A stretch of 64,000 bases of DNA from an uncultured Thermoplasmata archaeon (lineage in GTDB: Archaea; Thermoplasmatota; Thermoplasmata; UBA10834). The notes below the pieces were generated by a model. It was not told the origin of the DNA, made no database searches, and saw nothing but the letters and a program-made list of their open reading frames with translations. Positions 12,646 to 30,910 of the stretch are shown here, in pieces. The DNA lies in contig CAVRDX010000001.1 of NCBI GenBank assembly GCA_963719945.1, positions 128,001 through 192,000 of the forward strand, given 5' to 3'. Both the position numbers and the translations under genes were made by a program. Position 1 is the first letter of the stretch. Each line of letters starts with the position of its first letter.

Positions 12646-14118
12646 TTATGAGTTCGCGGGGGTCATCAGAGGATAATCGTCCTGGACTCTCCATGCTATC
12701 AAATATGGGGTGTCGCCGATTCCGTCTTCATCTTCGTCTAAGCCCTCATAATCTGACCAGTAGTTGCCTCTGCCAATCGTCTCATTGCTGAATGATGAGG
12801 TATAGAGATATGCACTACAATCTGCAGAATCCGCGTTGTCAATGAAGTCATTGAGGAATACTTCTAGTCTGTCGGTAGCAGACCCCATGGACGCCATGAT
12901 TCCGTATCCATTACCTCGAAGAGTGTTTCCTGTGACCGTGATATTCCCCCCAAGTGCCATGATACCTGCTCCATTGTCCCGCAGAGTGTTCCCATTGATT
13001 ACGATACGCTCTCCGTCAGTCATAAGGCCAGAGGCGCAATCACAAATCGAATTCTCCATTATTGTCACGTTCGCAGAATCATCCACATTCACCCCATCGA
13101 TGCAGGATGTGATCTGGTTATGTTTGATGGCAACGTTCGTGCATCCGTGTATAAAAACGCGGGCGTTTTCTATCATGCTGGATTCAATCGTGACACGGGT
13201 CGACTCCCTAGCTATGATGCCACCGGTGAACACAGCATTGGAGAGGGCACATTCAACGATTTCACAGTCACGAACCTTCATCAAATAGATGCATGTTGAG
13301 ACACTAGATATCTCCAATCCTGATATGCTCGCATTATTGCAGTTGAGCAGAATCAATTGCCCCACTTGTTCGCTGTAGAGTCTGAATTGAGAATGATTCT
13401 CGAAGAAGTATAGGGGCCTTCCATTTACGGTATTGTCTAGGGGTATATTCAATCCAGAAGAATTAGGCCCTATAGGTATCTCATATTCGTCAAATTCGAG
13501 GCCGCTGCCTTCAAATCTATTCCCAGAAATCGTGACATTCGCAAAATCGGATCCAATGATTCTTATCCCGATCTTCATTGATATCGATGGCAAGTACTCT
13601 ACGCTCCCGTTATCGAAGCTGTTCTCCTCGATGAGTACCGAATCAATGTTGCTGATCGACATGCCCGTGAAGCATGATGTCACCCTGTTTCTTATGATGG
13701 AGCACCTGATGCTATCATGCACGCCAATCCCCTCATAATGACCGATTATCATCGAATTCTCTACCCTTCCATTAGATACATTCTTGAGCAGTATCCCCGC
13801 AATGTTGAGCCCCTCTAATGAAACGTTTCTCACAACGAAGTGCGCCAAAGTTTCCTTTATTAAAATACCTGCTGCTTCAAGGCCGTATTCAATTCCGGAG
13901 GAGTCGATTCTCCACCCTTCAATGATGTACGGGTCTTTCTCAGTTCCCGATCCAGTTGTTACTCCGTTCTCTTCTGTGAATTCTTCATCGCTCGTAATGA
14001 TGATTGGGTCATGCTTGCGCTCGGAGTCAAAATAGCCCGAATAGAGAAGGACCGAGAAAACTGAAACTGAGGAAACTGCGATGACTAGAATCAGGGCGAC
14101 AAGCTTCCTCCGCTCCAT
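12646..14118 (-). CDS. Right-handed beta-helix (NosD/CASH-type) surface protein (cassette 2)
   Basis: N-terminal TM; GSGTEKDPYIIEGW; repeated I..N...N..GI units; GNYWSDY...DGIGDTPY...DDYPL C-terminus. Confidence 0.88.
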   Translation of the reverse strand: MERRKLVALILVIAVSSVSVFSVLLYSGYFDSERKHDPIIITSDEEFTEENGVTTGSGTEKDPYIIEGWRIDSSGIEYGLEAAGILIKETLAHFVVRNVSLEGLNIAGILLKNVSNGRVENSMIIGHYEGIGVHDSIRCSIIRNRVTSCFTGMSISNIDSVLIEENSFDNGSVEYLPSISMKIGIRIIGSDFANVTISGNRFEGSGLEFDEYEIPIGPNSSGLNIPLDNTVNGRPLYFFENHSQFRLYSEQVGQLILLNCNNASISGLEISSVSTCIYLMKVRDCEIVECALSNAVFTGGIIARESTRVTIESSMIENARVFIHGCTNVAIKHNQITSCIDGVNVDDSANVTIMENSICDCASGLMTDGERIVINGNTLRDNGAGIMALGGNITVTGNTLRGNGYGIMASMGSATDRLEVFLNDFIDNADSADCSAYLYTSSFSNETIGRGNYWSDYEGLDEDEDGIGDTPYLIAWRVQDDYPLMTPANS

Positions 14119-14212
14119 CCTGGGTCCACCATGAGCCTTAAGACAGCACTGTGATATCAATATTATCTCTATCTCAGGGGAATCTTGTCAGCTAGTCACC
14201 CCCGTGTAATTC

Positions 14213-14324
14213 TTTACCATCAACGAATTCAGGAAACTCATGATTCGCGTTTAGCTTTGAAGTTTATAGCTGGCAGTATTAATTAGGGGTAAATTCCAGG
14301 CTGAAATCCGGGCCCTCGCACATT
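14213..14324 (+). repeat. Cassette repeat R2
   Basis: 112 bp; core AAATCCGGGCCCTCGCACATTATTATTC identical to the tRNA 3' end and its downstream bases. Confidence 0.95.
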
Positions 14325-14348
14325 ATTATTCATAATGATGGATGATTG

Positions 14349-15209
14349 TCAAGTTGTTCGATGGCTCGCTGCACCGTGTGCTCGCTTGGGTGATTTGATC
14401 CGATGGGGTCGCACCTTTCTGTCGACCACTATCTGATTGTTCTTTTCGAGATAGTCTAGGCACTCTCTGATAAATGCAGGGGTTTCCCTCAATTCGGTTG
14501 AGAGTCCATCGACCGAGTTCATCCCCTTGTCAATTAGTGTGAGCAACCGCTGGGCACCCATCTTCAATTCCGCTCTTGTCTTCAGTGCTCGTTTCCAGGG
14601 GACTTTCACACCGTATCTCCTTTCCATCTCATCGAGCTTCGTGAGAAGGAACGCCTCCCAGATGCTGCTCTTTCTCAGCCCTTCGGGATCAGTCTGATTA
14701 TCGCACTCCTCTAGGATGATATCGCGGCTCAATCCTTTTCTGAACAACGCGATCATGTCGTCAAGGTCTCTTGATCTCTCAGTTACGCTCTTGAGCAGGA
14801 ATATATCTTCTCGCGAACAAATATACAGAACAAGTTCTCCCCATTCGTCAACCCGCTCTGCTCTTCGAATCATCCCTTCGGAGAGCCTTAGTTTGTTACA
14901 GATCCTTTCGGCGAAGATGTCGGCTCGCACCCCTCCTGAAGCGGACAATATTGTCGCGTCTACAAGTGCGTGACATTCCTGTGGATGCCTGGTATTGACA
15001 TCGAATCCTAGCGATTCGAAAGCTCTCTTGAGTTCCTGCGCTTCAAGCGATGATCGCACTATCAGATCCAAGTCCTTGGTAGCATCCTTCTCGCCTCTGA
15101 GCGCCATTGCTCCACCTCCCACCAAGTAGACTTGGATTCTCATGCTGCAGATATTCCCGACCTTCTCCATTATTGAAAGGACCTCTGATTTGCTGATTTG
15201 GGCCGGCAT
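14349..15209 (-). CDS. Nucleotidyltransferase (DUF6036/AbiEii-like) with C-terminal wHTH (cassette 3)
   Basis: YLVGGGAM...TKDLDL Pol-beta NTase motif; LLKS...R.RDLDD. Confidence 0.8.
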   Translation of the reverse strand: MPAQISKSEVLSIMEKVGNICSMRIQVYLVGGGAMALRGEKDATKDLDLIVRSSLEAQELKRAFESLGFDVNTRHPQECHALVDATILSASGGVRADIFAERICNKLRLSEGMIRRAERVDEWGELVLYICSREDIFLLKSVTERSRDLDDMIALFRKGLSRDIILEECDNQTDPEGLRKSSIWEAFLLTKLDEMERRYGVKVPWKRALKTRAELKMGAQRLLTLIDKGMNSVDGLSTELRETPAFIRECLDYLEKNNQIVVDRKVRPHRIKSPKRAHGAASHRTT

Positions 15210-15212
15210 CGT

Positions 15213-16133
15213 TCACTTCACCCCATATTGTATTCGTAATTCCTGCATATCCGACCTGCTAGGGAATAGCAGGTTCTCGACGTCTTCACCATCGAGGTAT
15301 TTTATCATCAGTTCGGATAGTTCCCCCACCCCCATCGCATCTCCTTGTCTACGTAGGTATCCTGACCTGTAGCCACTCTTGAACAGGAAGAGCAAGCTGT
15401 ATGCGATGCCTCTTGAGCTGCTTGGATCTATCAGGATGTTGTGGAGGGCGATATCCTCTGGTTTCAGACTCGGTCGCCAGTATGCATAGTGGTAATACTT
15501 CGTATCCGAAATGAACTGAAGTCCGCGTTGCGACATTGCTGTTACCCCAGTGCTGCGAATTCCAGATGTGTCTTTCAACTCTCGGGACGCGAATATAAAC
15601 TGAAGCCCTTCGCACCAGAGTATCCTCCCTGCCGAGGTGATGTCATCGAGGACCGCGGCGCACGCTCCTCTGGAGAAGTCCTGTAGAAATCGTGTTAGTA
15701 TCTTGTCTGATTGAGGAATCGAAATCACATCGCCATCCTGGACAACTGCTGCAAATCCTTTCAATGCCCAGACGATTCTGCGAACAGATTCTGGAGCAAG
15801 TCGCGTTTCAGTTGCGATTCTTCCGAGCGTCTTTTGATTACTTGAGGCCGAGAGCATGACGAGGAGCCTGGAACCAATCAGTGGTTCGATTGCACGAGAA
15901 TTTCCTTCTAGATATGTTGCCAGTGCTTTTGAGTGACCATGCGAGCTTATGAAGATTATATTGATCTTCCCTTCTCTCCGACTTGTCACAAGCTTCTTTG
16001 ACGATAGAGACTGGATTATTCTGTAGATTGAGATATTCGATAGGCCCGTATCTTCTATTAATGCAGCTGCTGATACATGACCATCGCATACTGACTTGAA
16101 TACTCGGAGTTCATTCTTGTTTAGAATATACAT
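15213..16133 (-). CDS. Winged-HTH protein, putative antitoxin or regulator of the adjacent NTase (cassette 3)
   Basis: Two HTH-like segments (TGLSNISIYRIIQSL; IATETRLAPESVRR); 3-bp gap to the NTase gene. Confidence 0.7.
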   Translation of the reverse strand: MYILNKNELRVFKSVCDGHVSAAALIEDTGLSNISIYRIIQSLSSKKLVTSRREGKINIIFISSHGHSKALATYLEGNSRAIEPLIGSRLLVMLSASSNQKTLGRIATETRLAPESVRRIVWALKGFAAVVQDGDVISIPQSDKILTRFLQDFSRGACAAVLDDITSAGRILWCEGLQFIFASRELKDTSGIRSTGVTAMSQRGLQFISDTKYYHYAYWRPSLKPEDIALHNILIDPSSSRGIAYSLLFLFKSGYRSGYLRRQGDAMGVGELSELMIKYLDGEDVENLLFPSRSDMQELRIQYGVK

Positions 16134-16330
16134 TGTGTGCAATAATTGATTGTTCATATATATAGAATTTATCAATATTGACACAAATGTTGCGGTTCAA
16201 TGAATATCAAAGCGTCGTGATATCCCTTCATCTTCTGCCGCTAGAGTACCAGGGTAGCAATCATCAAGGTCCATTCCATTTTGAACTCAGCTTGACAATA
16301 TGACTCTGGAATAATCTGATATCCTATTTC

Positions 16331-16442
16331 TTTGCCATCAAAAAATTCGGAGAAATCAAGGATCGCATTTGGCTTCGAAGATTCTAGCTGGCAGTTTTAA
16401 TTAGGGGTAAATTCCGGGTCATAATCCGGGCCCTCGCACATT
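16331..16442 (+). repeat. Cassette repeat R3
   Basis: 112 bp; TTTGCCATCAAAAAATTCGGAG...ATAATCCGGGCCCTCGCACATT. Confidence 0.95.
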
Positions 16443-16697
16443 TTAATTTCAAAGATGGGATTTATGTGCAAATCAACACCCTGCACTTCGGTATTCTCAC
16501 AAGCCCATTGACATGCCACCTTGTTTGAAGGATGTTGACCATCTATCTCTCTGAGGTTGCGTACCTGATCAGAGGTATTGGACAGTGGAGCGAGCAATCT
16601 CGGGCGGTATAGTCCATATGATGTGCCTGCGGCGTTTGACATGTCGCGGAAAATCTTCTATAGCTGCAAGAGCCATTGGGTTGAGGGAGGTTCGTCT

Positions 16698-17333
16698 GTG
16701 AATGCTGAACGCGCTTCGCCAGTTGAGGGACCGGAACGCAATTGGTCGACTCGGAAGAAGATATATGTGATTGTGATTGTCACAGCAGTCATAGCGTCCT
16801 TCTCAATGTGGTCTTTCTACGAATTCTACCTGGAGGAGCAAAGAGTTGCAGGGTTCGACTCTTATGTGAAGATCAGCTACACCGTTTCTATCGCATGCAA
16901 TTCCTCCGATCAATACAGGGTTCTCTGCCCGTTGCCTGTCGATTCAGAGGGGTGTGTTTGGCCCCTAACTCAGGGATATCTATATGTCACTGGAAATTCG
17001 ACCACGAGTATTGCGATGACAGAGTATGGTGAAGCCCTTGAAATCACAGGCAGTGGCGTCACAATAATCACCATGAATATTCGCTCGACGCTCACTGATC
17101 CTTTTGAGAACCTGACTCGCTACTGGCACCTCAGCTTGATGGAATCCAACACGGAATTGGGGTTTCGTGCGAATCTGTATTCTGACCACGAAGATGTGTT
17201 GTTTGGGCTGGTGTTCGACTATGACTTTGTCTACGGCAACTGTGGAGCGAACTTCATCGGTGATGAGTGCATAGGCAGTCTGAACAATGGGTGGAACACA
17301 TTATCTGTTGATCATAGTGGGGGAGTCGCCTGA
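16698..17333 (+). CDS. Hypothetical membrane-anchored protein (cassette 4)
   Basis: GGAGGT SD with GTG start; one TM helix then a beta-rich domain. Confidence 0.7.
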   Translation: MNAERASPVEGPERNWSTRKKIYVIVIVTAVIASFSMWSFYEFYLEEQRVAGFDSYVKISYTVSIACNSSDQYRVLCPLPVDSEGCVWPLTQGYLYVTGNSTTSIAMTEYGEALEITGSGVTIITMNIRSTLTDPFENLTRYWHLSLMESNTELGFRANLYSDHEDVLFGLVFDYDFVYGNCGANFIGDECIGSLNNGWNTLSVDHSGGVA

Positions 17334-17420
17334 TCATTGAATTCTAGGTCTATGTCCATGAACTCCAAGGGAGTTCCGAAGAAGTAATATCTCTCCGCCT
17401 ATGTTCTCGCCTGTCGATTT

Positions 17421-17532
17421 TCTACCATCAAAGAATTCGGAGAATTCACGGATCGCATTCGGTTTTGAAGATTATAGCTGGCAGTTTTAATTAGGGGTAA
17501 ATTCTGGGCTATAATCCGGGCCCTCGCACATT
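17421..17532 (+). repeat. Cassette repeat R4
   Basis: 112 bp; nearly identical to R7. Confidence 0.95.
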
Positions 17533-17753
17533 ATTATTTATGAACCGGGATTCAAAGGTGGCCCAAAACTGCGTATTCGTTACGATTATTTCCAGGACCA
17601 GCTAATCTGGCGTGGTCGATTAGGTGACAATGGCATGATAAATATGCTTACAACAGTCTTCTGATGGTCTGAAATATTTATTTAGTATGATATGTTACGA
17701 TGCCTGCCCAGCAGTGATGGGGGGTTTTGCTTCACTGCTAAAGGAGAGATTCT

Positions 17754-18953
17754 ATGGAGCCTGGAAGTACAGGATTTATGCTTGTGGCAACGAGCCTTGT
17801 CATGCTGATGACGCCTGGCTTGGCTTTTTTCTATGGTGGACTTGTTGGACGAAAGAATGTGCTCACAATAATGATGCAGAGCTTTGTATCGATGGGGGTT
17901 ACGACAATCATCTGGGTCACAGTCGGATTCTCGCTGTGTTTCAGTGGTGATGTAGGCGGGATTATCGGGAATCTCGATAATGCGTTTCTAATGGGGCTTG
18001 ACTTGAACACTCCGTTCACTGCAGATATCCCGGTATTCGTCTTTATCGCATACCAAATGATGTTTGCTGTCATTACGCCTGCTCTGATCACTGGCGCGTT
18101 CGCTAACAGGGTCAAATTCCCAGCTTATCTCATATTCCTGGTGGCATGGTTGCTACTGGTCTACTTCCCAATGGCCCACATGATATGGGGCGGTGGTATC
18201 CTTGCTCAATGGGGCGTTCTCGATTTCGCAGGTGGTATCGCAGTCCACGCCATCGCGGGTATGGCCGCTCTCGCATCCGTTTTCTTTGTCGGCGCGAGAA
18301 AGGACAAGCCTTCTGGTCCTCATAGCATCCCATTGGTTGCGCTCGGCACGGGGCTTCTGTGGTTCGGCTGGTATGGATTCAATGCTGGTAGCGAGCTGAG
18401 AGTGGATGAGGTAACGGTCACTGCATTCCTGAACACCGATATCGCAGCGTCCTTCGCAGCGATATCATGGCTTATCTTGGCTTGGACTCTTGAGAAGAAG
18501 CCGAAATTCCTTGGGCTGCTCACGGGCGCGGTCGCAGGGCTGGCGACGATAACTCCTGCTGCGGGGTTCGTGACTCCGCAGGCTGCGATGGTCATCGGTC
18601 TTTTGGCGGGTGTGATATGCTACTTTGCTGTGGCGCTGAAGAACAAGAGGCATTGGGATGATGCTCTCGATGTATGGGGCGTTCACGGTGTCGGTGGCAT
18701 TGTCGGAGTGGTCTGTCTAGGATTATTCGCAACGCTGGAAGTCAACAGCGCGGGTGCGAACGGTCTGTTCTATGGCGACGCTCGCTTCTTCGCGGTCGAG
18801 ATAGTCGCGGTTGTCATCGCTTCCGTGTATGCCTTCGTATTCACATACATAATGCTGCACGTGATTAACAAGATCACGCCTGTCAGAGTGAGCGATGCGG
18901 ATGAACTGACTGGTCTGGACCAGACGGAGCACGGTGAGGAAGCGTACGTGTGA
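17754..18953 (+). CDS. amt: Ammonium transporter (cassette 5)
   Basis: LMTPGLAFFYGG, DFAGGIAVH, LWFGWYGFNAGS and DDALDVWGVHG motifs. Confidence 0.97.
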   Translation: MEPGSTGFMLVATSLVMLMTPGLAFFYGGLVGRKNVLTIMMQSFVSMGVTTIIWVTVGFSLCFSGDVGGIIGNLDNAFLMGLDLNTPFTADIPVFVFIAYQMMFAVITPALITGAFANRVKFPAYLIFLVAWLLLVYFPMAHMIWGGGILAQWGVLDFAGGIAVHAIAGMAALASVFFVGARKDKPSGPHSIPLVALGTGLLWFGWYGFNAGSELRVDEVTVTAFLNTDIAASFAAISWLILAWTLEKKPKFLGLLTGAVAGLATITPAAGFVTPQAAMVIGLLAGVICYFAVALKNKRHWDDALDVWGVHGVGGIVGVVCLGLFATLEVNSAGANGLFYGDARFFAVEIVAVVIASVYAFVFTYIMLHVINKITPVRVSDADELTGLDQTEHGEEAYV

Positions 18954-19105
18954 AACCGTGCGGAACCAGCGTAGTGGGCGAGGCCAAATCTGGTTCAACA
19001 AACCTTTTTCGCTGTTTCAATTGCTCCTCGAGTTTGAATGGGGATCACTAGTTCTATTTTTGATGGCGGTCCAGGAGAAAGCATGAGTTACTACATTGCA
19101 TCGTG

Positions 19106-19765
19106 TCACTTCTCTACCCTTTCTCCGGTCTTCATATAGACCGTCCGTTCAGCGATGTTACATGCATGATCAGCTATCCTCTCAAGATATCTCGCAACGA
19201 ACTGATAGTTCATCCCCATCGTGATGTTCGCAGAGTTCTCCATCATGTATATCAGAACTTCTCGGAATATCTCATCGTACAGAGAGTCGACCCTGTCTTC
19301 AAGGATGAAGACCTCTTCTGTCTTATCCAGGTCTCCCTCGAGGAATGATTCGACGGCTAGGTCGACCATGGATACGGCCATCTCTGATATCCTGGGTATG
19401 CTTACGAGCACTTTGAAATGGCGAAGGTTAGATGCCTTTGCTCTCTCCGTTATCTCTGCGATATCTTTCGCGTACCTCACGATCCTGTCGAAGTCGGTGG
19501 TGATCTTCAGGCTCGTGGTCACATATCTGAGATCACCGGCAACTGGTGCGTGCAAGGCGATTATCTTGACAATCTCCTTCTCAGTCTTGACGAGAATCTC
19601 ATACGCCTTTTCGTCCAACTCTCTGACCCTCTCAACGAGCGAGAGGTCCAGATCCTCAAAGGATTTAGCAGCCAGGGTTATGGCCTCTCGGGCCATGGAT
19701 CCCATCATGTTCATTCTCTCTCCGAGCTCATTCAGCTCATCTTGATATGCTTTCCTCGGCGACAT
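19106..19765 (-). CDS. phoU: Phosphate signalling protein PhoU
   Basis: APVAGDLR and YLERIADHACNIAE motifs; downstream of pstB. Confidence 0.95.
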   Translation of the reverse strand: MSPRKAYQDELNELGERMNMMGSMAREAITLAAKSFEDLDLSLVERVRELDEKAYEILVKTEKEIVKIIALHAPVAGDLRYVTTSLKITTDFDRIVRYAKDIAEITERAKASNLRHFKVLVSIPRISEMAVSMVDLAVESFLEGDLDKTEEVFILEDRVDSLYDEIFREVLIYMMENSANITMGMNYQFVARYLERIADHACNIAERTVYMKTGERVEK

Positions 19766-19769
19766 GTTA

Positions 19770-20537
19770 TCACCCGAACCTCCCTGTAATGTATCTCTCT
19801 GTCAACTCTTCTTCTGGATTCTCGAATAGTCTCTTTGTCTTGTTGAACTCTATCAGTTCTCCAAGATACATGAATGCCGTCCAATCGGCCACACGTGCTG
19901 CCTGTTGCATGTTGTGTGTGACTATGATGACCGTGTAATCATTCTTCAAGTCGAATATGAGATCCTCTATCTTGGAAGTGGCAATGGGATCCAACGCGGA
20001 GCACGGCTCGTCCATGAGAAGTACCTCTGGTTCTATTGCCATGGCGCGCGCAATGCACAATCTCTGCTGTTGTCCCCCCGATATGCTAACACCTGAAGCG
20101 TCCAAGTTATTCTTCACCTCGTCCCAAAGAGCCGCTTGCTTTAAACTTCTCTCGACCTGCTCCTCTATGAACGCCTTATCTCTGATGCCGTTCATTCTCA
20201 GTCCGTAGGCGACATTATCGAATATCGATGCGTTGGGGAACGGGTTCGGTTTCTGGAAAACCATTCCGACTCGTCTCCTGACATCGACTGGATTGGTCCC
20301 TCTCGAATAGATATCCTCTCCATCGAGCAACACCTCTCCGGTCACCCTCGCCCCTGGAACGATCTCATGCATCCTATTCAAGCATCTGATGAACGTCGAC
20401 TTGCCGCACCCCGACGGTCCTATGATTGCTGTTGCACGGTTTGCCTTGACCTTGATGTTGATTCCTTTGACTGCCTTGTTCGAGCCGAAGTATGCGTCGA
20501 GTTCTCTTGTCTCTATCTTCGCTGACGATTCTCCCAT
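19770..20537 (-). CDS. pstB: Phosphate ABC transporter ATP-binding protein
   Basis: [37 protein letters not shown] and YITGRFG motifs. Confidence 0.97.
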
Positions 20538-20540
20538 GTG

Positions 20541-21404
20541 TCAATGCCTCCTCTTAAACAGATGTCTGCCTCCATGGGCAATTATCCTCACTGTGATGTT
20601 CAGACCAAGTACGAGCAATATCAGGAATGCGCTCGCTCCCCACGCTAGATCGTGCCAGTTATCGAAAGGAGATATTGCGAATTGGTAGATCAGCACGGGC
20701 ATCGATGCCATCGGCTGGGACAAGGTCGTTGGGTAGAACACGGTCCATCCGACAGTGAGCAGCAATGGTGCAGATTCTCCCGTTATCCGTGCAATGGACA
20801 GCATTATGCCAGTTATGATGCCTGGTTTGCCATTCGAAAGAACAACCTTCCTTATCGTTGCGGAACGGCTAACTCCCAGGGATAGCGATGCTTCCCTGAG
20901 CGATGTCGGCACAAGCTTGAGCGCCTCCTCGGTCGTCCTTGCGACGACTGGTATCATAATGATCGAGAGTGCCAATCCTCCTGCGAATGCATTCGGGCCT
21001 CCGAGGGAAACCACCAGGACGAGATAGGCGAATATACCGATGATTATGGATGGGAAACCAGCAAGCACATCCATGACGAAACGGACGATCCTTCCGAACA
21101 AGTTGTCTCCATATTCTGACACGAATATACCAGATACGATTCCGATTGGGATTCCAATCAACGAACCGATTCCAATGGCTGCCAAGGTGCCGACAATGGC
21201 CGGTCCTATCCCTCCGACCTCATCGCTCCCTGGTGGTGGTATGGTTCCTGTCAGAAACTCGAATGAGAACTGCGGCAACCCTTTGATCAGCACATCCACG
21301 AGTATGCTTACTAGCGGGACCAGAGCAGCGATGACGCACGCGACCGCTGCGAGCGTTGCCAGTCTGTCCTTTATCATCCTCTTTCGGAAGCCCTTGGAGT
21401 TCAT
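20541..21404 (-). CDS. pstA: Phosphate ABC transporter permease PstA
   Basis: GIGPAIVGT, PSIIIG, REASLSLG and ARITGESAP motifs; start overlaps the pstC stop. Confidence 0.95.
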   Translation of the reverse strand: MNSKGFRKRMIKDRLATLAAVACVIAALVPLVSILVDVLIKGLPQFSFEFLTGTIPPPGSDEVGGIGPAIVGTLAAIGIGSLIGIPIGIVSGIFVSEYGDNLFGRIVRFVMDVLAGFPSIIIGIFAYLVLVVSLGGPNAFAGGLALSIIMIPVVARTTEEALKLVPTSLREASLSLGVSRSATIRKVVLSNGKPGIITGIMLSIARITGESAPLLLTVGWTVFYPTTLSQPMASMPVLIYQFAISPFDNWHDLAWGASAFLILLVLGLNITVRIIAHGGRHLFKRRH

Positions 21405-22420
21405 TCGACTCTGACCCTCCCCACCTTCGTCACTCGACTGAGCAAGATTCGACCAGCCACATTTATCGCTAGCATGAGTACAAACAGTACAAGCCCTACT
21501 CCAATCAGTGCGGATTGTTGAACTGTTCCGGATGGTGCCTCCCACCAGTTGGTCGCGATGAGGCTGGATAGGGTCTGTCCTGGATCGAGAAGTGACCACG
21601 AGAATGAATTCACATTTCCTATGACCATGGTGACCGCCATGGTCTCTCCGACTGCTCTTCCAAGCCCCAGTACGGCAGCTCCGAATATTCCTGATCGTGC
21701 ATAGCTAATAGCGACTGTTCCGATCATCTCGTATCTTGTCGCTCCCAATGCCAATGCAGCTTCCTTCTGGGATGTTGGCACTGCCTTGAGTGCATCCCTT
21801 GAAATCGCTGAGATGGTAGGTATTATCATTATTGCCAGAATCACGGCTGCGCTCAGCTTGTCTATCCCGAAAGTCCTTCCTTCGAAGAACGGCAGGAAGC
21901 CCAAGCTTCCTTGGAGGAACGGTTCCACCTGACCCCTCATGAACCCTCTTAGCGTGAATATCCCCCAGATGCCGAAGACGACGCTGGGAACGGCTGCGAG
22001 CATCTCTACGAGGAATCCCAATGGCGTGCCGATCCATTTGGGTGCGATCTCGGAGATGAATATTGCAATCCCCACGCTGATGGGGACTGCTATCATCATC
22101 GCCACAGCGGATGTGTAGAGTGTCCCACCGATGAACGGAAGCGCTCCAAATACCCCTTGATTAAAACTCCATGTGCTCCCTGTGAAGAATTTGTACCCCA
22201 TCGAATCCAGCACCGGAAAGGCTCCCTCGATGAGGTAGCCTACGACCCAAGCGAATATCGCGACAGCTGAGAATGCGAGGATCCCACAGAATAGCTGGAA
22301 CCGGCCGTCCGAGGTCAGGATGAGCTGGTTCAATGTCTCCTTCAACCCATCCATTCTAGCAGACGGAGGATTCCGGCCATTATGGGCTGAATCATTGGGG
22401 CCGCCTTCTTCACTATTCAT
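21401..22420 (-). CDS. pstC: Phosphate ABC transporter permease PstC
   Basis: PSVVFGIWG, EAALALGAT and GRAVGETMAV motifs. Confidence 0.95.
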   Translation of the reverse strand: MNSEEGGPNDSAHNGRNPPSARMDGLKETLNQLILTSDGRFQLFCGILAFSAVAIFAWVVGYLIEGAFPVLDSMGYKFFTGSTWSFNQGVFGALPFIGGTLYTSAVAMMIAVPISVGIAIFISEIAPKWIGTPLGFLVEMLAAVPSVVFGIWGIFTLRGFMRGQVEPFLQGSLGFLPFFEGRTFGIDKLSAAVILAIMIIPTISAISRDALKAVPTSQKEAALALGATRYEMIGTVAISYARSGIFGAAVLGLGRAVGETMAVTMVIGNVNSFSWSLLDPGQTLSSLIATNWWEAPSGTVQQSALIGVGLVLFVLMLAINVAGRILLSRVTKVGRVRVE

Positions 22421-23564
22421 TGTACAAAGGCTCCCCGTCACATACTATGGATCTCAGAGTCTCCTCGTTGAGCTCGACTACTTCAGAGGGTAATGGCGCA
22501 TAGTAGAGACTGTCTGAATACTCCTGTCCATCATGCACCATCCACCACAGGAAATCCACAAGCGCCTTTCCTTTCTGGTTGTCCGCTTGTTCCTTGTATA
22601 CGAGTATGTATGTGAAGCTGGCTATCGGATACGAATCATCTCCAGGTGCATTCAAAATCTCAACGCCGTCCCAGCTCTCATCCCCAGCCGGCAGAGTGGC
22701 CGCGCTTGCTGCAGCGGCTGCAACAGTGGATTCAGTTGACGGAAGCACGAAGAGCCCCTCCAAATTCTGAATGGCTGCGTAATCGATTTCGTTCTCAATC
22801 GCATACGAGAGCTCGAGGTACCCTATGCTGTATGGTGTCGTGGACATCGCGCCTGCGACTCCTCCGTTTCCGGTACCCCCTATGGTCTCAGTTGGCCAGT
22901 CGATGGTCTTCGATGCTCCATATAACTCCATCCAAGTCTCGTTCACCTTCGAAAGATAGGAACTCCAGATGAATGTCGTTCCACTGCCATCCGCTCTCCT
23001 GACTACGGTTATCGGTTCGTCCGGAATGGTCAGGCCAGGGTTGATTGAAGCAATCTCGGGATCGTTCCAGTTCGTGATGTTGAGCATGAATATCCCGGCA
23101 ATCACATCTCCAGTAAGGTTCAGGCCATTGTCCAGCTCGGGAACATTGTATGCACATACCACTGCGCCCAATGTCTCCGGTATGTGAAGTAGTCCAAGAT
23201 CATCCTTGTCGGTCGTGAGCGGAGCATCCGTTCCGGCGAAATCCACGAGATTATCGACTATTCTGCTTATTCCTCCACTGCTTCCAACCCCTTCATAGCT
23301 CACCCTCACAGAGGTCTCATTTTCGTAGACCTGTACCCACTTCGAAATCAATGGAAATGGGAAGGTCGCTCCCGCACCAGATAATGTGACGTTATCATTT
23401 TCATGGGAGTTTAGAATCTGCAGAGCAAAAACCACTCCGATTAGTAGAGCAACGATGGCGGTTGCCATCACCAACTTCATCGGCTTTATTTTTCCGCGAT
23501 TCTTCTGGGCTGCAGCAATTCTTCCACGGACATCAGTTGAATCTTTATTCGTTTCTTCGCTCAT
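22413..23564 (-). CDS. pstS: Phosphate ABC transporter substrate-binding protein
   Basis: GAGATFP, GSSGG, DFAGTD, RADGSGTT and YPIASFTY motifs. Confidence 0.96.
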   Translation of the reverse strand: MSEETNKDSTDVRGRIAAAQKNRGKIKPMKLVMATAIVALLIGVVFALQILNSHENDNVTLSGAGATFPFPLISKWVQVYENETSVRVSYEGVGSSGGISRIVDNLVDFAGTDAPLTTDKDDLGLLHIPETLGAVVCAYNVPELDNGLNLTGDVIAGIFMLNITNWNDPEIASINPGLTIPDEPITVVRRADGSGTTFIWSSYLSKVNETWMELYGASKTIDWPTETIGGTGNGGVAGAMSTTPYSIGYLELSYAIENEIDYAAIQNLEGLFVLPSTESTVAAAAASAATLPAGDESWDGVEILNAPGDDSYPIASFTYILVYKEQADNQKGKALVDFLWWMVHDGQEYSDSLYYAPLPSEVVELNEETLRSIVCDGEPLYNE

Positions 23565-23755
23565 TGTATCACCTGCGGTCTTCTTGCTTTCTCTGTCTCT
23601 TCAATGATCAGCAGGCGACCATTGGCGCTTGAATGTTCAGAGCCTAGATGTCATTGTCAAACTGTGTCAAGCCATCGCATATATAGAAGTATAGTCTCTA
23701 TATAGAAAGCAATAATATCACCTCGTGCCAATGTGTGTATATAGAGTCCAATTAA

Positions 23756-24775
23756 TTGGTGTTGATACCTTTGCAGGAATCTAGGCGAATTCAAAAGACC
23801 GGAGGGTCGACCTACACGATCTCCCTCCCGAAGAGATGGGTGGTGGACTCCGGTCTGAAAAAGGGCGATTTTCTATTAATGACGATAGGCAGTGATGGAT
23901 CACTTTCGATAGATTCTGTTTCTCCCCGAGAGACCGAGAAGTTGACGAAAGAGATATCAGTCGATAGCAAGACTGATCCACGAACATTGCTGAGACAGCT
24001 TATCGGTGCATATGTCACGGGTCATGACGTGATTCATGTGAGATCCAATTCCAGAATTCTCCCTGAGATTAGAAGGGCTGTTCAGGATTTCTCAAGAAGG
24101 GTGATTGGCCCTGAGATTATCGAAGAGAGTTCCAACCATATTGTTGTGCAAGATGTCGCTGACCATGCTGACCTGGCCATGCGGAAGGTCGTCCGCCGAA
24201 TGCACCTGATGGTGAAGAACATGTTCGAGGAGGCAGTGAGGGCAGTCGATAGTATGGACGTCACTCTTGCTGATGAGGTCATCGCAAGGGATGATGAGGT
24301 TGATCGACTTCATTGGTTCGTGGAGAAACAGCATGCGACTATCCGTCGTAATGTATCATTTGCGGTCAAGATGAAGATGAGCTGGTTGGAGTCCGACGTA
24401 CTGCTTTCCACGGCGAAATCGTTAGAGAGGATAGCGGACCACGCTGTTCGAGTCGCGCACAGCGTTCGATTGCTCAAGACATCGAAGGTGGATCGCGTGG
24501 TGATATCAGACCTCGAGCGATTGAGTAGTGGTGCGGTCTCAATCCTCGATGACAGTATCGAAGCCTTGTTCAAGAGCGATTCTATCCTTGCCAACAAGTG
24601 TCTGGATCGGTCATCCAGTCTTCAAGACGAGATAAACAAGTTCCTTGAGGGTGCGATGACCCGACGGGGGAAGGTTGCAGTCGGGCTGGCATTTGCAGCT
24701 GAGAGTGTATCACGAGCTTGTGGGTATTCATCGGATATCGCAGAGACTGCTATCAACCTCGCAGAAGGGCAATAA
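23756..24775 (+). CDS. Archaeal phosphate uptake regulator (AbrB-like N-terminus plus PhoU domains)
   Basis: RRIQKTGGSTYTISLPKRW, DDEVDRLH and LERIADHA motifs; divergent from pstS. Confidence 0.92.
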   Translation: MVLIPLQESRRIQKTGGSTYTISLPKRWVVDSGLKKGDFLLMTIGSDGSLSIDSVSPRETEKLTKEISVDSKTDPRTLLRQLIGAYVTGHDVIHVRSNSRILPEIRRAVQDFSRRVIGPEIIEESSNHIVVQDVADHADLAMRKVVRRMHLMVKNMFEEAVRAVDSMDVTLADEVIARDDEVDRLHWFVEKQHATIRRNVSFAVKMKMSWLESDVLLSTAKSLERIADHAVRVAHSVRLLKTSKVDRVVISDLERLSSGAVSILDDSIEALFKSDSILANKCLDRSSSLQDEINKFLEGAMTRRGKVAVGLAFAAESVSRACGYSSDIAETAINLAEGQ

Positions 24776-24920
24776 TCATCAGCAACTTTCCTGTCTTCGC
24801 TTCACATTTTGATCCCTATGTAACGCCAGCTCTCATCTCTGCAGATTCGACCCTGATGACTGAGGCTGTTTCTAATGGCAGTTCTCTACAGCGCAATGAA
24901 TCGGCTTTATCGTTCATTTC

Positions 24921-25032
24921 TTTACAATCAAAGAAATCGATGAATTCATGATTCGCAATTAGCTTTGAAGATTATAGCTGGCAGTTTTAATTGGGGGTAA
25001 ATTCCGGGCTATAATCCGGGCCCTCGCACATT
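24921..25032 (+). repeat. Cassette repeat R5
   Basis: 112 bp with intact core. Confidence 0.95.
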
Positions 25033-25231
25033 TTAATATTTGCGAAAAGATTTACGTTCATGCAGATGCCGGATCGAGAGCAAGCCCGTATCGGCATCAT
25101 TCGGTGCCCCCGAAGTGATTATATTCAGCAATTATATCTCATCACTGCTGAGCGTCGGAGAGGCCTTTCAACATTGGGATTGGAATCATGGATGAGTCGC
25201 TCTTATCGTTCTAAGTAGGCCAACTGGTGAA

Positions 25232-25786
25232 ATGATGGATTTCGTCACGGTGATTCTAATTGCGATTGGGCTATCCATGGATGCTTTTGCAGTTTCAATT
25301 GCCAAAGGAATATCTGTAAATAAGAACAGAAGAAGATCCGCAATCCTATTGGCTTCTCTTTTTGGAGGGTTTCAAGCGCTGATGCCCGTAATCGGTTGGT
25401 TTGCAGGTCTGGGCCTAAGGGACATAATCATGGGAGTCGACCATTGGATTGCATTTGGGCTACTCGGGCTCATTGGCGCAAAGATGATCTACGACTCAAC
25501 GAACGGTGAAGATGGTAAGGAGGAAGATGTTACAATATTCGCGGCACTCGTCCTCGCAGTTGCGACCAGCATCGATGCTTTGATGGTTGGTCTCAGTTTC
25601 GCATTCTTGGAGACACCTATCTTGATCCCCGTCCTGATCATTGGAGCAGTAACCTTTGTGCTATCTTATCTGGGATTCATATTCGGCTCAAGGATGGGAA
25701 GCATCTTCGGCAAGAAGGTAAAGATTCTTGGCGGCCTTATCCTCATATTAATCGGGATACGGATCTTGATAGAGCACTTACTATAG
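25232..25786 (+). CDS. mntP: Manganese efflux pump MntP (cassette 6)
   Basis: GLSMDAFAVS, FQALMP, DHWIAF and ATSIDAL motifs. Confidence 0.95.
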   Translation: MMDFVTVILIAIGLSMDAFAVSIAKGISVNKNRRRSAILLASLFGGFQALMPVIGWFAGLGLRDIIMGVDHWIAFGLLGLIGAKMIYDSTNGEDGKEEDVTIFAALVLAVATSIDALMVGLSFAFLETPILIPVLIIGAVTFVLSYLGFIFGSRMGSIFGKKVKILGGLILILIGIRILIEHLL

Positions 25787-25889
25787 ACAACCGGGAGTTC
25801 AAGGGCTACATCCATTGTCATCGATTGATTGATATTGATCGTGGGGGTCGAATCCCATCAACATTGCCCCTTGATGACTGGTTCATTTC

Positions 25890-26001
25890 TTTACCATCAA
25901 AGAATTCGGAGAATTCAAGAACCACATTTGGCATTGAAGATTATAGCTGACAGTTTTAATTGGGGGTAAATTCCGGGCTATAATCCGGGCCCTCGCACAT
26001 T
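25890..26001 (+). repeat. Cassette repeat R6
   Basis: 112 bp with intact core. Confidence 0.95.
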
Positions 26002-26054
26002 TTAATAATCTGGCGTGAATTAATGTGTGGGTGTTGTCTGCTCCGAATGCTTTA

Positions 26055-27437
26055 CTACCTCTTTCCTCCAATCGATTCTTGCGTCGAGAGGAGGAGTCTC
26101 CACAGAGGAAAAAGGGTGATAGCGACATCGCCCAACTCCATGGTCCCCTCTCTGTCTTTCGTGACAAGGTAGGCTTTGTTGCAGCCATGCACTTCACAGA
26201 ACCTCGCAAGTCCCTTCGCGTCAGATTTGTAGATGCTGGTCTGGTACTTGAGTTCGATTGGAACAGGACCGTGTCTTGATGGCAGCACTATGTCAACCTC
26301 GTTCCCCTGCGGGTCTCTCCAGAAGAAGACCTGTGACGTCCTTGAGAGGTGGTTGTACGCGGCGGTTTCCGCCAACCTTCCGAGTTCCTGACTTCCAGTC
26401 ATATCATCCAGTCCAAGAAGGGCACTGATCAATCCAGTGTCCGTGAGATATGCCCGTTTCGAGGATCGCGCCTGTTTGACCATGCTCTTGGTGTAGTTGT
26501 AGCAGGTCGAGAAGAGCATCGCCCGCTCCAGGATAGAAAGGTACTTCGAGGCCGTTTGTGCCTTCATTCCTATGTCCGGTGCGATGTTGGCGATCTCGAA
26601 CATTTGAGAACTCATGGAGGCGAGTATCTTCAGGAGGTGCATCATGCTCGCAGGGTTCGCGATGCTCTCAGTCTCGGGAAGGTCGTGATACACCACTCTG
26701 TCCAAGACGGATTGCCGGATGTATCTGTGTACCTTTGTGATGGGTTGCATGCCGACCGTCTCCGGATATCCCCCTCTGACCAGGTAGTTGGTCAATGCGT
26801 TCGTGACCTCGTTCTGAATGAGCATGAATGACTCCGGGACCGGAGCGCCCGACCCTATGGGTGGGATTCGTGGCACCTCAATCCCTTTGAACGCCAGATA
26901 TTCTCGGAAAGACAAAGTCGGAATGGTGATATCGAACGCCCTTCCCGCAAGGCTCTCGCCCATGCCCTTCCTCAACCCGAGCGACGACGATCCTGATGCG
27001 AATATCTTCACGTTCGGTTTCGTCTCATAGATGCGCTTGAGGATGGTAGGCCATTCATTAATGAACTGTATCTCGTCGAGGAACAGGAATACCGGGTTCT
27101 TCTTCGAAGGCTTGGTTGGAACTACGTTCTCAAGGAAGTATGATACGACATCCTCGAGGATTGTGTGTTCCCTCGATAGGACTTCGTCAAAGGAGAAGTA
27201 CATAGTGTTCTTGGAATTGACGCCCCTGTCGAGCAAATCCTGCATCGTCTTGGTGATTGCCGTGGTCTTCCCCGACCTCCTCGGCCCCGTGACAAGGACA
27301 ATCTGTCGGTCATCGGCGAAGCTTGTCAACTCCTCAATCGATTCCCTCTGGATGATTTCTTCAACGTGCTCAGCGAGGGATTCACCTCTCCACTGTGGAT
27401 TCGAGATCACTATCTGTCTCACGAGCCTTTCGTTCAC
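26055..27437 (-). CDS. AAA_14 ATPase with DUF4143/PD-(D/E)xK C-terminus (cassette 7)
   Basis: GPRRSGKT, FLDEIQ, SGSS, GGYP and EVDIV...PIELK motifs. Start uncertain (27437 or 27476). Confidence 0.9.
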   Translation of the reverse strand: MNERLVRQIVISNPQWRGESLAEHVEEIIQRESIEELTSFADDRQIVLVTGPRRSGKTTAITKTMQDLLDRGVNSKNTMYFSFDEVLSREHTILEDVVSYFLENVVPTKPSKKNPVFLFLDEIQFINEWPTILKRIYETKPNVKIFASGSSSLGLRKGMGESLAGRAFDITIPTLSFREYLAFKGIEVPRIPPIGSGAPVPESFMLIQNEVTNALTNYLVRGGYPETVGMQPITKVHRYIRQSVLDRVVYHDLPETESIANPASMMHLLKILASMSSQMFEIANIAPDIGMKAQTASKYLSILERAMLFSTCYNYTKSMVKQARSSKRAYLTDTGLISALLGLDDMTGSQELGRLAETAAYNHLSRTSQVFFWRDPQGNEVDIVLPSRHGPVPIELKYQTSIYKSDAKGLARFCEVHGCNKAYLVTKDREGTMELGDVAITLFPLWRLLLSTQESIGGKR

Positions 27438-27628
27438 GGTGAATCGATATAATTGTGAGTTTATAATGATTTCCAATATATCTAAATGTGTTATTGGGCT
27501 TCAACTGCTCCACAGACAGCACCTGCAACGCTACCAGCTCGACCCTTAGTTCGGCAGCCGATCTCGCTGGCGATGCCCTCGAGATCGCCGAGACAGCGGT
27601 CGACACTGTCGAGAAGCTCGCCTCGTTT

Positions 27629-27740
27629 TTTACCATCAAATAATTCGGAGAATTCACGGATCGCATTCGGTTTTGAAGATTATAGCTGGCAGTTTTAATT
27701 AGGGGTAAATTCCGGGCTATAATCCGGGCCCTCGCACATT
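27629..27740 (+). repeat. Cassette repeat R7
   Basis: 112 bp with intact core. Confidence 0.95.
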
Positions 27741-27764
27741 ATTATTCATAATGATGGATGATTG

Positions 27765-28625
27765 TCAAGTTGTTCGATGGCTCGCTGCACCGTGTGCTCG
27801 CTTGGGTGATTTGATCCGATGGGGTCGCACCTTTCTGTCGACCACTATCTGATTGTTCTTTTCGAGATAGTCTAGGCACTCTCTGATAAATGCAGGGGTT
27901 TCCCTCAATTCGGTTGAGAGTCCATCGACCGAGTTCATCCCCTTGTCAATTAGTGTGAGCAACCGCTGGGCACCCATCTTCAATTCCGCTCTTGTCTTCA
28001 GTGCTCGTTTCCAGGGGACTTTCACACCGTATCTCCTTTCCATCTCATCGAGCTTCGTGAGAAGGAACGCCTCCCAGATGCTGCTCTTTCTCAGCCCTTC
28101 GGGATCAGTCTGATTATCGCACTCCTCTAGGATGATATCGCGGCTCAATCCTTTTCTGAACAACGCGATCATGTCGTCAAGGTCTCTTGATCTCTCAGTT
28201 ACGCTCTTGAGCAGGAATATATCTTCTCGCGAACAAATATACAGAACAAGTTCTCCCCATTCGTCAACCCGCTCTGCTCTTCGAATCATCCCTTCGGAGA
28301 GCCTTAGTTTGTTACAGATCCTTTCGGCGAAGATGTCGGCTCGCACCCCTCCTGAAGCGGACAATATTGTCGCGTCTACAAGTGCGTGACATTCCTGTGG
28401 ATGCCTGGTATTGACATCGAATCCTAGCGATTCGAAAGCTCTCTTGAGTTCCTGCGCTTCAAGCGATGATCGCACTATCAGATCCAAGTCCTTGGTAGCA
28501 TCCTTCTCGCCTCTGAGAGCCATTGCTCCACCTCCCACCAAGTAGACTTGGATTCTCATGCTACAGATATTCCCGACCTTCTCCATTATTGAAAGGACCT
28601 CTGATTTGCTGATTTGGGCCGGCAT
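27765..28625 (-). CDS. Nucleotidyltransferase (DUF6036/AbiEii-like), second copy (cassette 8)
   Basis: Protein identical to 14349-15209. Confidence 0.8.
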   Translation of the reverse strand: MPAQISKSEVLSIMEKVGNICSMRIQVYLVGGGAMALRGEKDATKDLDLIVRSSLEAQELKRAFESLGFDVNTRHPQECHALVDATILSASGGVRADIFAERICNKLRLSEGMIRRAERVDEWGELVLYICSREDIFLLKSVTERSRDLDDMIALFRKGLSRDIILEECDNQTDPEGLRKSSIWEAFLLTKLDEMERRYGVKVPWKRALKTRAELKMGAQRLLTLIDKGMNSVDGLSTELRETPAFIRECLDYLEKNNQIVVDRKVRPHRIKSPKRAHGAASHRTT

Positions 28626-28628
28626 CGT

Positions 28629-29549
28629 TCACTTCACCCCATATTGTATTCGTAATTCCTGCATATCCGACCTGCTAGGGAATAGCAGGTTCTCGACGTC
28701 TTCACCATCGAGGTATTTTATCATCAGTTCGGATAGTTCCCCCACCCCCATCGCATCTCCTTGTCTACGTAGGTATCCTGACCTGTAGCCACTCTTGAAC
28801 AGGAAGAGCAAGCTGTATGCGATGCCTCTTGAGCTGCTTGGATCTATCAGGATGTTGTGGAGGGCGATATCCTCTGGTTTCAGACTCGGTCGCCAGTATG
28901 CATAGTGGTAATACTTCGTATCCGAAATGAACTGAAGTCCGCGTTGCGACATTGCTGTTACCCCAGTGCTGCGAATTCCAGATGTGTCTTTCAACTCTCT
29001 GGACGCGAATATAAACTGAAGCCCTTCGCACCAGAGTATCCTCCCTGCCGAGGTGATGTCATCGAGGACCGCGGCGCACGCTCCTCTGGAGAAGTCCTGT
29101 AGAAATCGTGTTAGTATCTTGTCTGATTGAGGAATCGAAATCACATCGCCATCCTGGGCAACTGCTGCAAATCCTTTCAATGCCCAGACGATTCTGCGAA
29201 CAGATTCTGGAGCAAGTCGCGTTTCAGTTGCGATTCTTCCGAGCGTCTTTTGATTACTGGAGGCCGAGAGCATGACGAGGAGCCTGGAACCAATCAGTGG
29301 TTCGATTGCACGAGAATTTCCTTCTAGATATGTTGCCAGTGCTTTTGAGTGACCATGCGAGTTTATGAAGATTATATTGATCTTCCCATCTCTCCGACTT
29401 GTCACAAGCTTCTTTGACGATAGAGACTGGATTATTCTGTAGATTGAGATATTCGATAGGCCCGTATCTTCTATTAATGCAGCTGCTGATACATGACCAT
29501 CGCATACTGACTTGAATACTCGGAGTTCATTCTTGTTTAGAATATACAT
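28629..29549 (-). CDS. Winged-HTH protein, second copy (cassette 8)
   Basis: Three amino-acid differences from 15213-16133 (E/D, S/N, V/A). Confidence 0.7.
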   Translation of the reverse strand: MYILNKNELRVFKSVCDGHVSAAALIEDTGLSNISIYRIIQSLSSKKLVTSRRDGKINIIFINSHGHSKALATYLEGNSRAIEPLIGSRLLVMLSASSNQKTLGRIATETRLAPESVRRIVWALKGFAAVAQDGDVISIPQSDKILTRFLQDFSRGACAAVLDDITSAGRILWCEGLQFIFASRELKDTSGIRSTGVTAMSQRGLQFISDTKYYHYAYWRPSLKPEDIALHNILIDPSSSRGIAYSLLFLFKSGYRSGYLRRQGDAMGVGELSELMIKYLDGEDVENLLFPSRSDMQELRIQYGVK

Positions 29550-29746
29550 TGTGTGCAATAATTGATTGTTCATATATATAGAATTTATCAATATTGACAC
29601 AAATGTTGCGGTTCAATGAATATCAAAGCGTCGTGATATCCCTTCATCTTCTGCCGCTAGAGTACCAGGGTAGCAATCATCAAGGTCCATTCCATTTTGA
29701 ACTCAGCTTGACAATATGACCCTGGAATAATCTGATATCCTATTTC

Positions 29747-29858
29747 TTTGCCATCAAAAAATTCGGAGAAATCAAGGATCGCATTTGGCTTCGAAGATTC
29801 TAGCTGGCAGTTTTAATTAGGGGTAAATTCCGGGTCATAATCCGGGCCCTCACACATT
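29747..29858 (+). repeat. Cassette repeat R8 (one core substitution)
   Basis: Arm identical to R3; core reads CCCTCACACATT. Confidence 0.93.
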
Positions 29859-29996
29859 TCAATTCTTGATTCCAAATATCCATTGTGGCACCGTCTATGC
29901 CATCATCTTCTATCCTCCGTTCAAGGGTGCTTTCTCCTACCCTTACATATTGCATGCATTAGAAAACTATATGCATATGTAAGGGTATGAGATGTC

Positions 29997-30893: not shown

Positions 30894-30910
30894 TTTCTTC
30901 AGGACCGTTT

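Follow-up and report, generated by a model that had tools for sequence, protein, structure and literature searches.

How does one small pair of genes come to stand twice, 13.4 kb apart, in a row of cassettes beside a single tRNA gene? The question is raised by a stretch of 64,000 nucleotides (nt) from an uncultured Thermoplasmata archaeon (GenBank assembly GCA_963719945.1, contig CAVRDX010000001.1, positions 128,001 to 192,000; here called the window), in which a tRNA-Leu(CAA) gene is followed by ten cassette slots, and a cassette of about 2.1 kb, carrying a nucleotidyltransferase (NTase) and a winged helix-turn-helix (HTH) protein, occupies both slot 3 (copy A) and slot 8 (copy B). At this locus, cassettes without an integrase have accreted in an array at tRNA-Leu(CAA), and the explanation that we favor, as the probable but by no means certain one, is that the cassette entered this tandem array a second time by recombination at a short tRNA-derived core, carried out by a tyrosine integrase acting in trans. 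Coordinates refer to the window unless a contig is named; G000 denotes the genome under study, G001-G020 and similar designations its family relatives, and L0xx designations loci or contigs.

The duplicated cassette and its breakpoints

The cassettes (C1-C10) are separated by a repeat of ~124 nt, which consists of a conserved arm of ~95 nt and the exact 3' end of the tRNA (the core). At the tRNA itself the core spans 11179-11196, comprising the last 16-17 nt of the gene and the 1-2 nt that follow. The tRNA is intact, and the 18-nt core recurs in direct repeat at junctions R1-R8, as in other tandem accretions; it is perfect in R1-R7, carries one substitution in R8, is lost in R9 and is degenerate in R10. 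No further occurrence of the ~124-nt repeat was found with nhmmer in the 1.78-Mb genome outside the array. The main features are:

11110..11195 (+), tRNA-Leu(CAA), the anchor of the array (ARAGORN; Rfam RF00005 at 56.8 bits)
11179..32264 (+), the whole cassette array, with ten slots and junctions R1-R10 (repeat finding, alignment, nhmmer)
14210..14304 (+), arm R2, closing cassette C2; the unshared left flank of copy A
14305..16440 (+), copy A, including the whole of its left and right cores (homology with copy B to 16448)
16328..16440 (+), junction R3 (arm 16328-16422, core 16423-16440)
16441..27625, the intervening cassettes C4-C7 (Pfam, PADLOC, repeats R4-R6)
27626..27720 (+), arm R7, closing cassette C7; the unshared left flank of copy B
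27721..29856 (+), copy B, core to core (homology with copy A to 29864)
29744..29856 (+), junction R8 (arm 29744-29838, core 29839-29856 with one substitution)

Ungapped comparison of 14305-16448 with 27721-29864 (offset 13416) gave a gapless alignment with 10 mismatches, located in copy A at 15102, 15147, 15584, 15742, 15843, 15946, 15972, 16305, 16436, and 16444. The divergence between the copies is 0.47%, and a match of 2.1 kb at 99.5% identity makes a chance origin of the likeness impossible. A preliminary description of this DNA had counted about nine substitutions in 14305-16442; pairwise alignment gave exactly nine there, the tenth lying just outside at 16444.

Both copies begin and end in the core AATCCGGGCCCTCGCACA; the repeat finder places the left-hand core of copy A at 14305 and that of copy B at 27721, and the corresponding right-hand cores at 16423 and 29839. 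On the left, identity starts with the first base of the 18-nt core, positions 14298 and 14303-14304 being already mismatched, and there are 19 differences in 95 nt between the upstream arms, R2 and R7 (82% identity), in agreement with the earlier statement that the copies become identical at the core while these arms differ. On the right, the cassette's own arms R3 and R8 are 100% identical and the downstream sequence is unrelated from 16449 on, also as described. The claim that identity ends at the next core held only in part: the end lies near that core, but homology continues for ~8 nt beyond it, and one mismatch (16436/29852) falls within the right-hand core of copy B (G to A at 29852). 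These ~8 nt are an AT-rich motif (TTTTAATT or TTATTATT) that is common to most cassette starts. Homology well beyond the cores, which had been named beforehand as an observation against core-bounded movement, amounts only to these ~8 nt past the right core. The repeated unit thus has both of its ends in tRNA-derived core, which bears out the composition core-cargo-arm proposed for the mobile unit, and four cassettes (C4-C7, delimited by repeats and Pfam) do lie between the copies. The duplication therefore shows what the unit is and confines the crossover to about 20 nt, in the core.

The genes within the unit are as follows:

14349..15209 (-), copy A gene 1, NTase of 286 amino acids (aa) (DUF6036; Pfam PF19502, E 3.7e-5)
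15213..16184 (-), copy A gene 2, winged-HTH protein of 323 aa with an HVO_2833_C domain (Pfam PF24271, E 3.8e-11)
27765-28625 (-), copy B NTase
28629-29600 (-), copy B HTH protein

The NTase proteins of the two copies are identical, and the HTH proteins differ by exactly three changes (E71D, S80N, and V148A), the number that had been noticed by eye. The 323-aa protein also gave weak TrmB/IclR HTH matches in Pfam and is a probable regulator or antitoxin partner of the NTase. Pairs of NTase and HTH genes, 64-74% identical to the duplicated cassette, are present in several family genomes (e.g., L037 = G004:C45:49838-51485). G004 holds such a pair yet showed no arm repeats in the arm search, so this gene pair is not restricted to arrays. 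The HTH protein also has distant homologues (57-61%) in metagenome-assembled genomes (MAGs) of other Thermoplasmata, but no repeat stands beside these.

Junctions, integrases and cassettes in related genomes

Each junction, with its ~95-nt arm followed by the exact tRNA 3' end, has the layout of an attachment (att) site of the attR type. In an alignment of 45 distinct arms from four genera, conserved blocks flank a poorly conserved spacer of ~25 nt; the motif ACC(A/G)(T/G)(C/T)AAA marks the distal end of the arm and is repeated ~10 nt before the core, and invariance starts at ATCCGGGCCCTCGCACA. The proximal ~40 nt of the arm resemble a diverged copy of the end of the tRNA variable arm and the T arm. 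An inverted repeat of 9 bp is complete in 12 of the 45 arms, only 2-3 of its 9 positions pair in variant-B arms, and no compensatory changes were seen in it across the alignment. Single-strand folding of three arms of the window gave z values of +0.3 to +0.85, no better than shuffled sequence, and one variant-B arm (G020) gave -1.8; Rfam returned no match at the array repeats apart from the tRNA. An attC-like hairpin was ruled out by the lack of conserved pairing and, in the three arms of the window, of a fold better than shuffled sequence, and a remnant of a split integrase gene by an integrase that is intact elsewhere and by block conservation without codon periodicity. Conservation in blocks together with the absence of a stable fold fits double-stranded protein-binding sites, and it is such DNA that the arm looks like, neither an attC-like hairpin nor a gene fragment. 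Arms R4 (17418-17512) and R7 (27626-27720), which close unrelated cassettes, are 97% identical, and the remaining non-duplicate pairs 80-88%; the likeness of R4 and R7 suggests gene conversion or exchange between arms.

The arm was present in 20 of the 24 family genomes searched, mostly in several clustered copies, and on 15 metagenome contigs, two of which are anchored on tRNA-Leu(CAA) (L046 and L052). The array starts at this tRNA in the genome under study, G005, L046, and L052; in G006 and G018 the repeats come after the tRNA and its integrase. The integrase of G018 and G006 is a tyrosine integrase of ~325 aa that starts ~590 nt after tRNA-Leu(CAA), has a SAM-like N-terminal domain and PF00589 with the R, HxLRH, and Y motifs, and heads a stretch of 30-40 kb ending in arm and core. 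An integrase of the "suicidal" type of Sulfolobus spindle-shaped viruses (SSV) was rejected, as in both genomes the gene is unbroken, with its whole length between the tRNA and the next junction. In G005 the integrase is truncated (98% identical over the first 212 residues) and belongs to a 2.1-kb unit closed by arm and core; this unit matches G006 up to nucleotide ~630 of the integrase gene, and its remainder is without counterpart in the stretches of G006 used for comparison, which shows that units also decay and are joined illegitimately. An integrase that shares the att site is thus present in relatives only, full-length in G006 and G018 and truncated in G005. None was found on the 15 array-bearing metagenome contigs, and most arrays have no integrase of their own. 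The 30-kb integrase-bearing stretch of G006 contains IS21, radical-SAM genes, and unknown open reading frames (ORFs); of its ORFs 10 were tested, and none bore a clear hallmark of a virus or plasmid.

Only two PF00589 matches were obtained in the genome under study, at contig C1:430395 and on contig C2, and neither qualifies as the array enzyme. The 238-aa recombinase at C1:430395 is probably XerA and shares 28-29% identity with the ~325-aa integrase over the catalytic domain; the 365-aa integrase on contig C2 is followed by a tRNA-Leu(CAG) end and so belongs to another element.

Cassettes themselves can be followed from genome to genome. The cassette core-Fic-arm (29839-30986) is 91.8% identical in G006, where it stands at another locus, ~2.3 kb from tRNA-Ser(CGA) (L023 = G006:C9, 6836-8031), with an exact core before it and an arm and a degenerate core after it. 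At the orthologous position here (contig C1:420540-420567), ~3 kb from tRNA-Ser(CGA), there is only a degenerate core, TTCAAATCCGGCGCTCGCACA. The orphan tRNA-Leu-like core near tRNA-Ser(CGA) looks like a secondary attachment site, and its occupied form in G006 and the degenerate core here make an imperfect empty/occupied pair, with ~380 extra nt in G006. A second orphan core-like sequence, TCAGATCCGGCCCTTCGCACATTTTAATT (contig C1:418727-418756), heads a 945-bp segment that has no counterpart in G006 and no recognizable arm at its far end. The MntP cassette recurs at 96.5% identity between unrelated flanks in metagenome contig L051, and is also found in G012; the AAA ATPase cassette is also found in G019, and the second Fic cassette in G005 and G001. 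The order of units also varies: G006 has the tRNA, the integrase and 30 kb, a NosD-like unit, C7, an NTase/HTH unit, and pst, and G005 has the tRNA, the truncated integrase, two other units, Amt with pst, and a C10-like Fic cassette. Homology of cassettes between genomes repeatedly stops at cores or arms. As judged from these sequences, cassettes behave as separate, context-independent units across genomes; the earlier claim that they move individually finds its support here, in the foreign contexts of the Fic and MntP cassettes and in the differing orders of G005 and G006.

Origin of the second copy

The preliminary description had supposed that the unit was inserted twice independently, and this part of it did not survive comparison with the orthologue in G006. 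With that orthologue as outgroup, copy A shows 50 differences and copy B 46, and the two differ from one another at only 10 positions (0.47%, vs. 2.2% to the G006 orthologue); the copies are therefore recent sisters and not independent acquisitions. The arm in G006 differs from R7 at 9 of 95 positions and from R2 at 18 of 95, and the succession of C7, arm, and cassette is kept in G006:C2, with 96.8% identity over 26111-29858. The conserved context and the closer R7 arm place copy B in the older position, and copy A is best read as a secondary, derived insertion between C2 and C4. Relative to G006, seven of the eight derived changes in the cargo are in copy A, an excess that would fit either with relaxed constraint on a redundant copy or with re-import from a slightly diverged strain.

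On the favored explanation, a junction would be a hybrid att site made up of an element's arm, 17-18 nt identical to the tRNA end, and the AT-rich start of the next unit. Integration of an attP of the form arm-core-P' at the tRNA 3' end would yield tRNA(core)-P'...arm-core, and a second integration at the regenerated tRNA would push the first element outward and create arm-core-P' hybrid junctions; repeated integration of this kind would produce the arm-core-P' pattern, as seen here. For a single cassette, a circular molecule of cargo-arm-core would recombine with a resident chromosomal core to give core-cargo-arm-core, and where the tRNA itself is the target, insertion would regenerate an intact tRNA. 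Copy B would be the older resident and copy A a recent arrival from the same lineage: it would have left a sister chromosome by excision and been inserted again, or have come from a strain that is nearly identical, and strand exchange within the core of junction R2 would have brought it in. A tyrosine integrase of the ~325-aa family that adjoins this tRNA in relatives would act in trans; we infer both its catalytic role and the circular intermediate. Exchange would probably take place close to where the invariant ATCCGGG begins, since the tRNA takes up only what lies 3' of the exchange, and this part must stay perfect. As no such integrase was found in this genome, the array here is probably static until an integrase-bearing element enters.

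Several observations weigh against this explanation. Searches of this genome, which is 87% complete, gave no homologue of the ~325-aa integrase, and in or beside the array there is no recombinase. Among 45 other family genomes only five have the integrase (E <= 1e-25), full-length in two of them (G006 and G018), and an occurrence this sporadic marks it as an element-borne enzyme rather than a fixed one of the integron type. The two junctions of copy A were not found in 46 family genomes. Copy A occupies slot 3 and does not adjoin the tRNA, so that either two later insertions took place or insertion can use internal junctions. Arm and arm with core were absent from viral contigs in two scans, and none of the 15 array-bearing metagenome contigs is circular. 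Nor are all units cleanly modular: the integrase unit of G005 is a truncated chimera, and Amt and pst form one 7.5-kb unit here (17531-25012), but pst alone follows an arm in G006. Amt with pstSCAB-PhoU is a single unit in G005 as well, and homology of the G006 pst block (L021 3635-9776) starts ~50 nt after the core; the difference reflects either a fusion of two cassettes or a core-independent deletion. Finally, the 97% identity of R4 and R7 points to homologous exchange among arms.

This last observation leads to the alternative that no site-specific recombinase took part and that the ~124-nt repeats gave rise to the second copy by homologous recombination or gene conversion. Unequal exchange may have duplicated a block, with repeat-mediated deletions afterwards, or the cell may have taken up DNA of a close relative and recombined with it. 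For archaea, it has been proposed that tandem elements exchange modules by homologous recombination (PMC8371274). Identity among the repeats is 80-100%, the core and its adjacent block are the longest stretch that they share, so that crossovers would be favored there, and the missing cognate integrase speaks for this route too, as does the divergence of R7 from its G006 orthologue (9/95) in the midst of flanking DNA that is ~97% identical. Against it, both ends of the copied unit fall in 18-26 nt of perfect identity despite further identical runs of R2 and R7 upstream, one isolated extra cassette 13.4 kb away requires several successive events, and cassette homology ends at cores even at the secondary site, which has a core and no arm. 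We therefore regard a purely homologous origin as unlikely. It is rather less probable still that a circle of several cassettes, such as C3 with C4 or a larger one, was excised between two distant cores and brought copy A along, in which case the duplication alone would not show movement of single cassettes. Any two cores could in principle recombine, unit sizes vary widely (from 1 to 7.5 kb in this array and from 30 to 40 kb in G006 and G018), and C4 has no close homologue elsewhere, which makes its history inseparable from that of copy A; but only the 2.1-kb unit is duplicated, and the Fic and MntP cassettes stand alone in foreign contexts of other genomes.

An artifact of assembly, in which the copies are alleles of two co-existing strains threaded together through shared repeats, also has to be considered, given that the genome is a MAG, that the copies are only 0.47% apart, that repeats every 1-7 kb invite mis-threading, and that the junctions of copy A occur in no other assembly searched. 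The array lies, however, on a 906-kb contig of a 4-contig assembly, unique sequence stands on both sides of each copy, all four junctions have the regular arm-core anatomy, and the left junction of copy B is independently present in G006. We consider a chimera very unlikely, and even a chimera would mean that the population holds this cassette in two array contexts, and so would support cassette mobility.

Cargo of the array and comparison with known systems

The window starts with archaeal large-subunit rRNA (Rfam), and the upstream flank of the array consists of housekeeping genes. The cassettes are 1-7.5 kb in size, with C1, C4, C6, and C9 on the plus strand and C2, C3, C7, C8, and C10 on the minus strand, and contain:

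C1 (+), two ORFs (182 and 168 aa) of unknown function
C2 (-), NosD-like protein
C3 and C8 (-), NTase/HTH pair (copy A and copy B)
C4 (+), unknown 251-aa protein
C5, Amt, pstSCAB, and two PhoU-domain genes, 7.5 kb
C6 (+), MntP
C7 (-), AAA_14/DUF4143 ATPase (PADLOC PDC-S01)
C9 (+) and C10 (-), two Fic proteins (PADLOC PDC-S04/SoFic)

No recombinase or transfer gene was found by Pfam and PADLOC in the major ORFs of slots C1-C10, and the two ORFs of slot 1 gave no Pfam or PADLOC match and no similarity to the integrase. The units are thus bounded by att sites and have no recombination or transfer genes, as in a cis-mobilizable element (CIME). Beyond the last recognizable repeat lie genes for a GNAT acetyltransferase and a clostripain-family peptidase (32845-36144), which in G010 (L020 = G010:C65, 7111-10277) are arm-bounded cassettes in the opposite order; the array here therefore probably extends past R10, with eroded junctions.

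Site-specific accretion with CIMEs is known beside elements of the ICESt1/ICESt3 type in Streptococcus (PMC5704250; ICEberg 2.0, PMC6323972). As in that system, integrase-less, att-bounded units stand in tandem at one target and share their att site with an integrase-bearing element able to integrate next to them; in CIME accretion the integrase acts in trans or in cis. The present array differs in its archaeal host, in its ten or more units of 1-7 kb, each with a ~95-nt arm, in its target at a tRNA 3' end, and in the absence of conjugation genes here. In archaea, tandem integration of tyrosine-recombinase elements at tRNA genes is established, and integrated elements without an integrase are known and have been ascribed to loss of the integrase gene (PMC8371274; PMC6563490). 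The use of the tRNA 3' end as attB, the flanking direct repeats, and the re-use of the site are common to those elements and the array, whereas the published cases are a few large proviruses, plasmids, and cryptic elements; here a regular row of one- and two-gene units is found, with an arm conserved across the whole family and the same units in different orders. The Tycheposon islands of Prochlorococcus are likewise anchored at tRNA genes, contain scattered partial tRNAs and fragmented integrases, and grow by successive integrations that push older elements outward (bioRxiv 10.1101/2020.12.28.424599). Tycheposons and cassette C5 (Amt and Pst) both carry cargo for nitrogen and phosphate uptake; Tycheposons, in another domain of life, carry their own integrase and replication module, both of which are missing from the present units. 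In Dehalococcoides, genomic islands target ssrA (PMC3146451); these have a bacterial host, and their abstract mentions no conserved long arm, unlike the array here. No paper was found in the literature on a regular, family-wide archaeal array of one- and two-gene integrase-less cassettes with a ~95-nt arm. What is known is site-specific accretion at tRNA genes, and what is little described is an archaeal array of small integrase-less cassettes.

Integrons are the textbook device for the capture of single genes and are essentially bacterial; Ghaly and colleagues reportedly described them in archaeal MAGs in 2022. The array resembles integrons and clusters of attC sites lacking integron-integrases (CALINs) in its small, exchangeable cassettes without an integrase, each ending in a recombination site, in the lack of an integrase in most arrays, in cargo for defense and of toxin-antitoxin-like kind, and in duplicated cassettes. 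It differs in a recombination site made of an arm and a tRNA core without a conserved hairpin, and in a proximal site that is a functional tRNA gene. An integron proper was rejected on three grounds: the integrase is not fixed at the site but lies inside the first unit in relatives (5 of 45 family genomes, and not here), the arm has no attC-like conserved single-strand fold, and the cassettes lie on both strands, so that they are not read from one promoter.

It is conceivable, though we think it doubtful, that the array is a working platform for gene capture rather than a graveyard, in which an arm and tRNA core of ~115 nt make any gene set of 1-7 kb movable on its own in trans, as an independently evolved analogue of the integron. 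The role of attI would then fall to the end of tRNA-Leu(CAA) and to a few orphan cores elsewhere, the system would have originated independently in Thermoplasmatota from classical double-stranded attP/attB recombination, and a sporadically present tyrosine integrase would shuffle defense, toxin-antitoxin-like, and nutrient-uptake cassettes among strains. If single cassettes are indeed mobilized at a tRNA-derived site, archaea would have a route of their own for the exchange of small gene modules, built from ordinary attP/attB recombination, which would help to explain strain-level variation of gene content in an uncultured lineage. The modules concerned include candidate defense genes (PDC-S01 and the two Fic genes), a toxin-antitoxin-like pair, MntP, and ammonium and phosphate uptake. 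For a biochemical test with the relatives' integrase, the duplicated cassette gives concrete substrates.

Traces of other elements were noted outside the array. The 365-aa tyrosine integrase mentioned above (contig C2:21651-22827; L002 997-2094) is followed by the exact last 20 nt of tRNA-Leu(CAG), the gene itself lying near the end of contig C1 (900492-900577), and the two are probably parts of another integrated element that is split across contigs. Uncalled partial tRNA 3' ends (Val/Ile-, Ala-, Ser-, and Glu/Gly-like) at C1:861575, 861800, 863862, and 901254 and at C4:16808 and 19850 may be attachment-site remnants of other elements or unrecognized tRNA genes. In G006, the IS21-type pair inside the integrase-bearing stretch (L028 12840-14953; G006:C8) consists of IstA, with rve and Mu-transposase C-terminal domains, and IstB.

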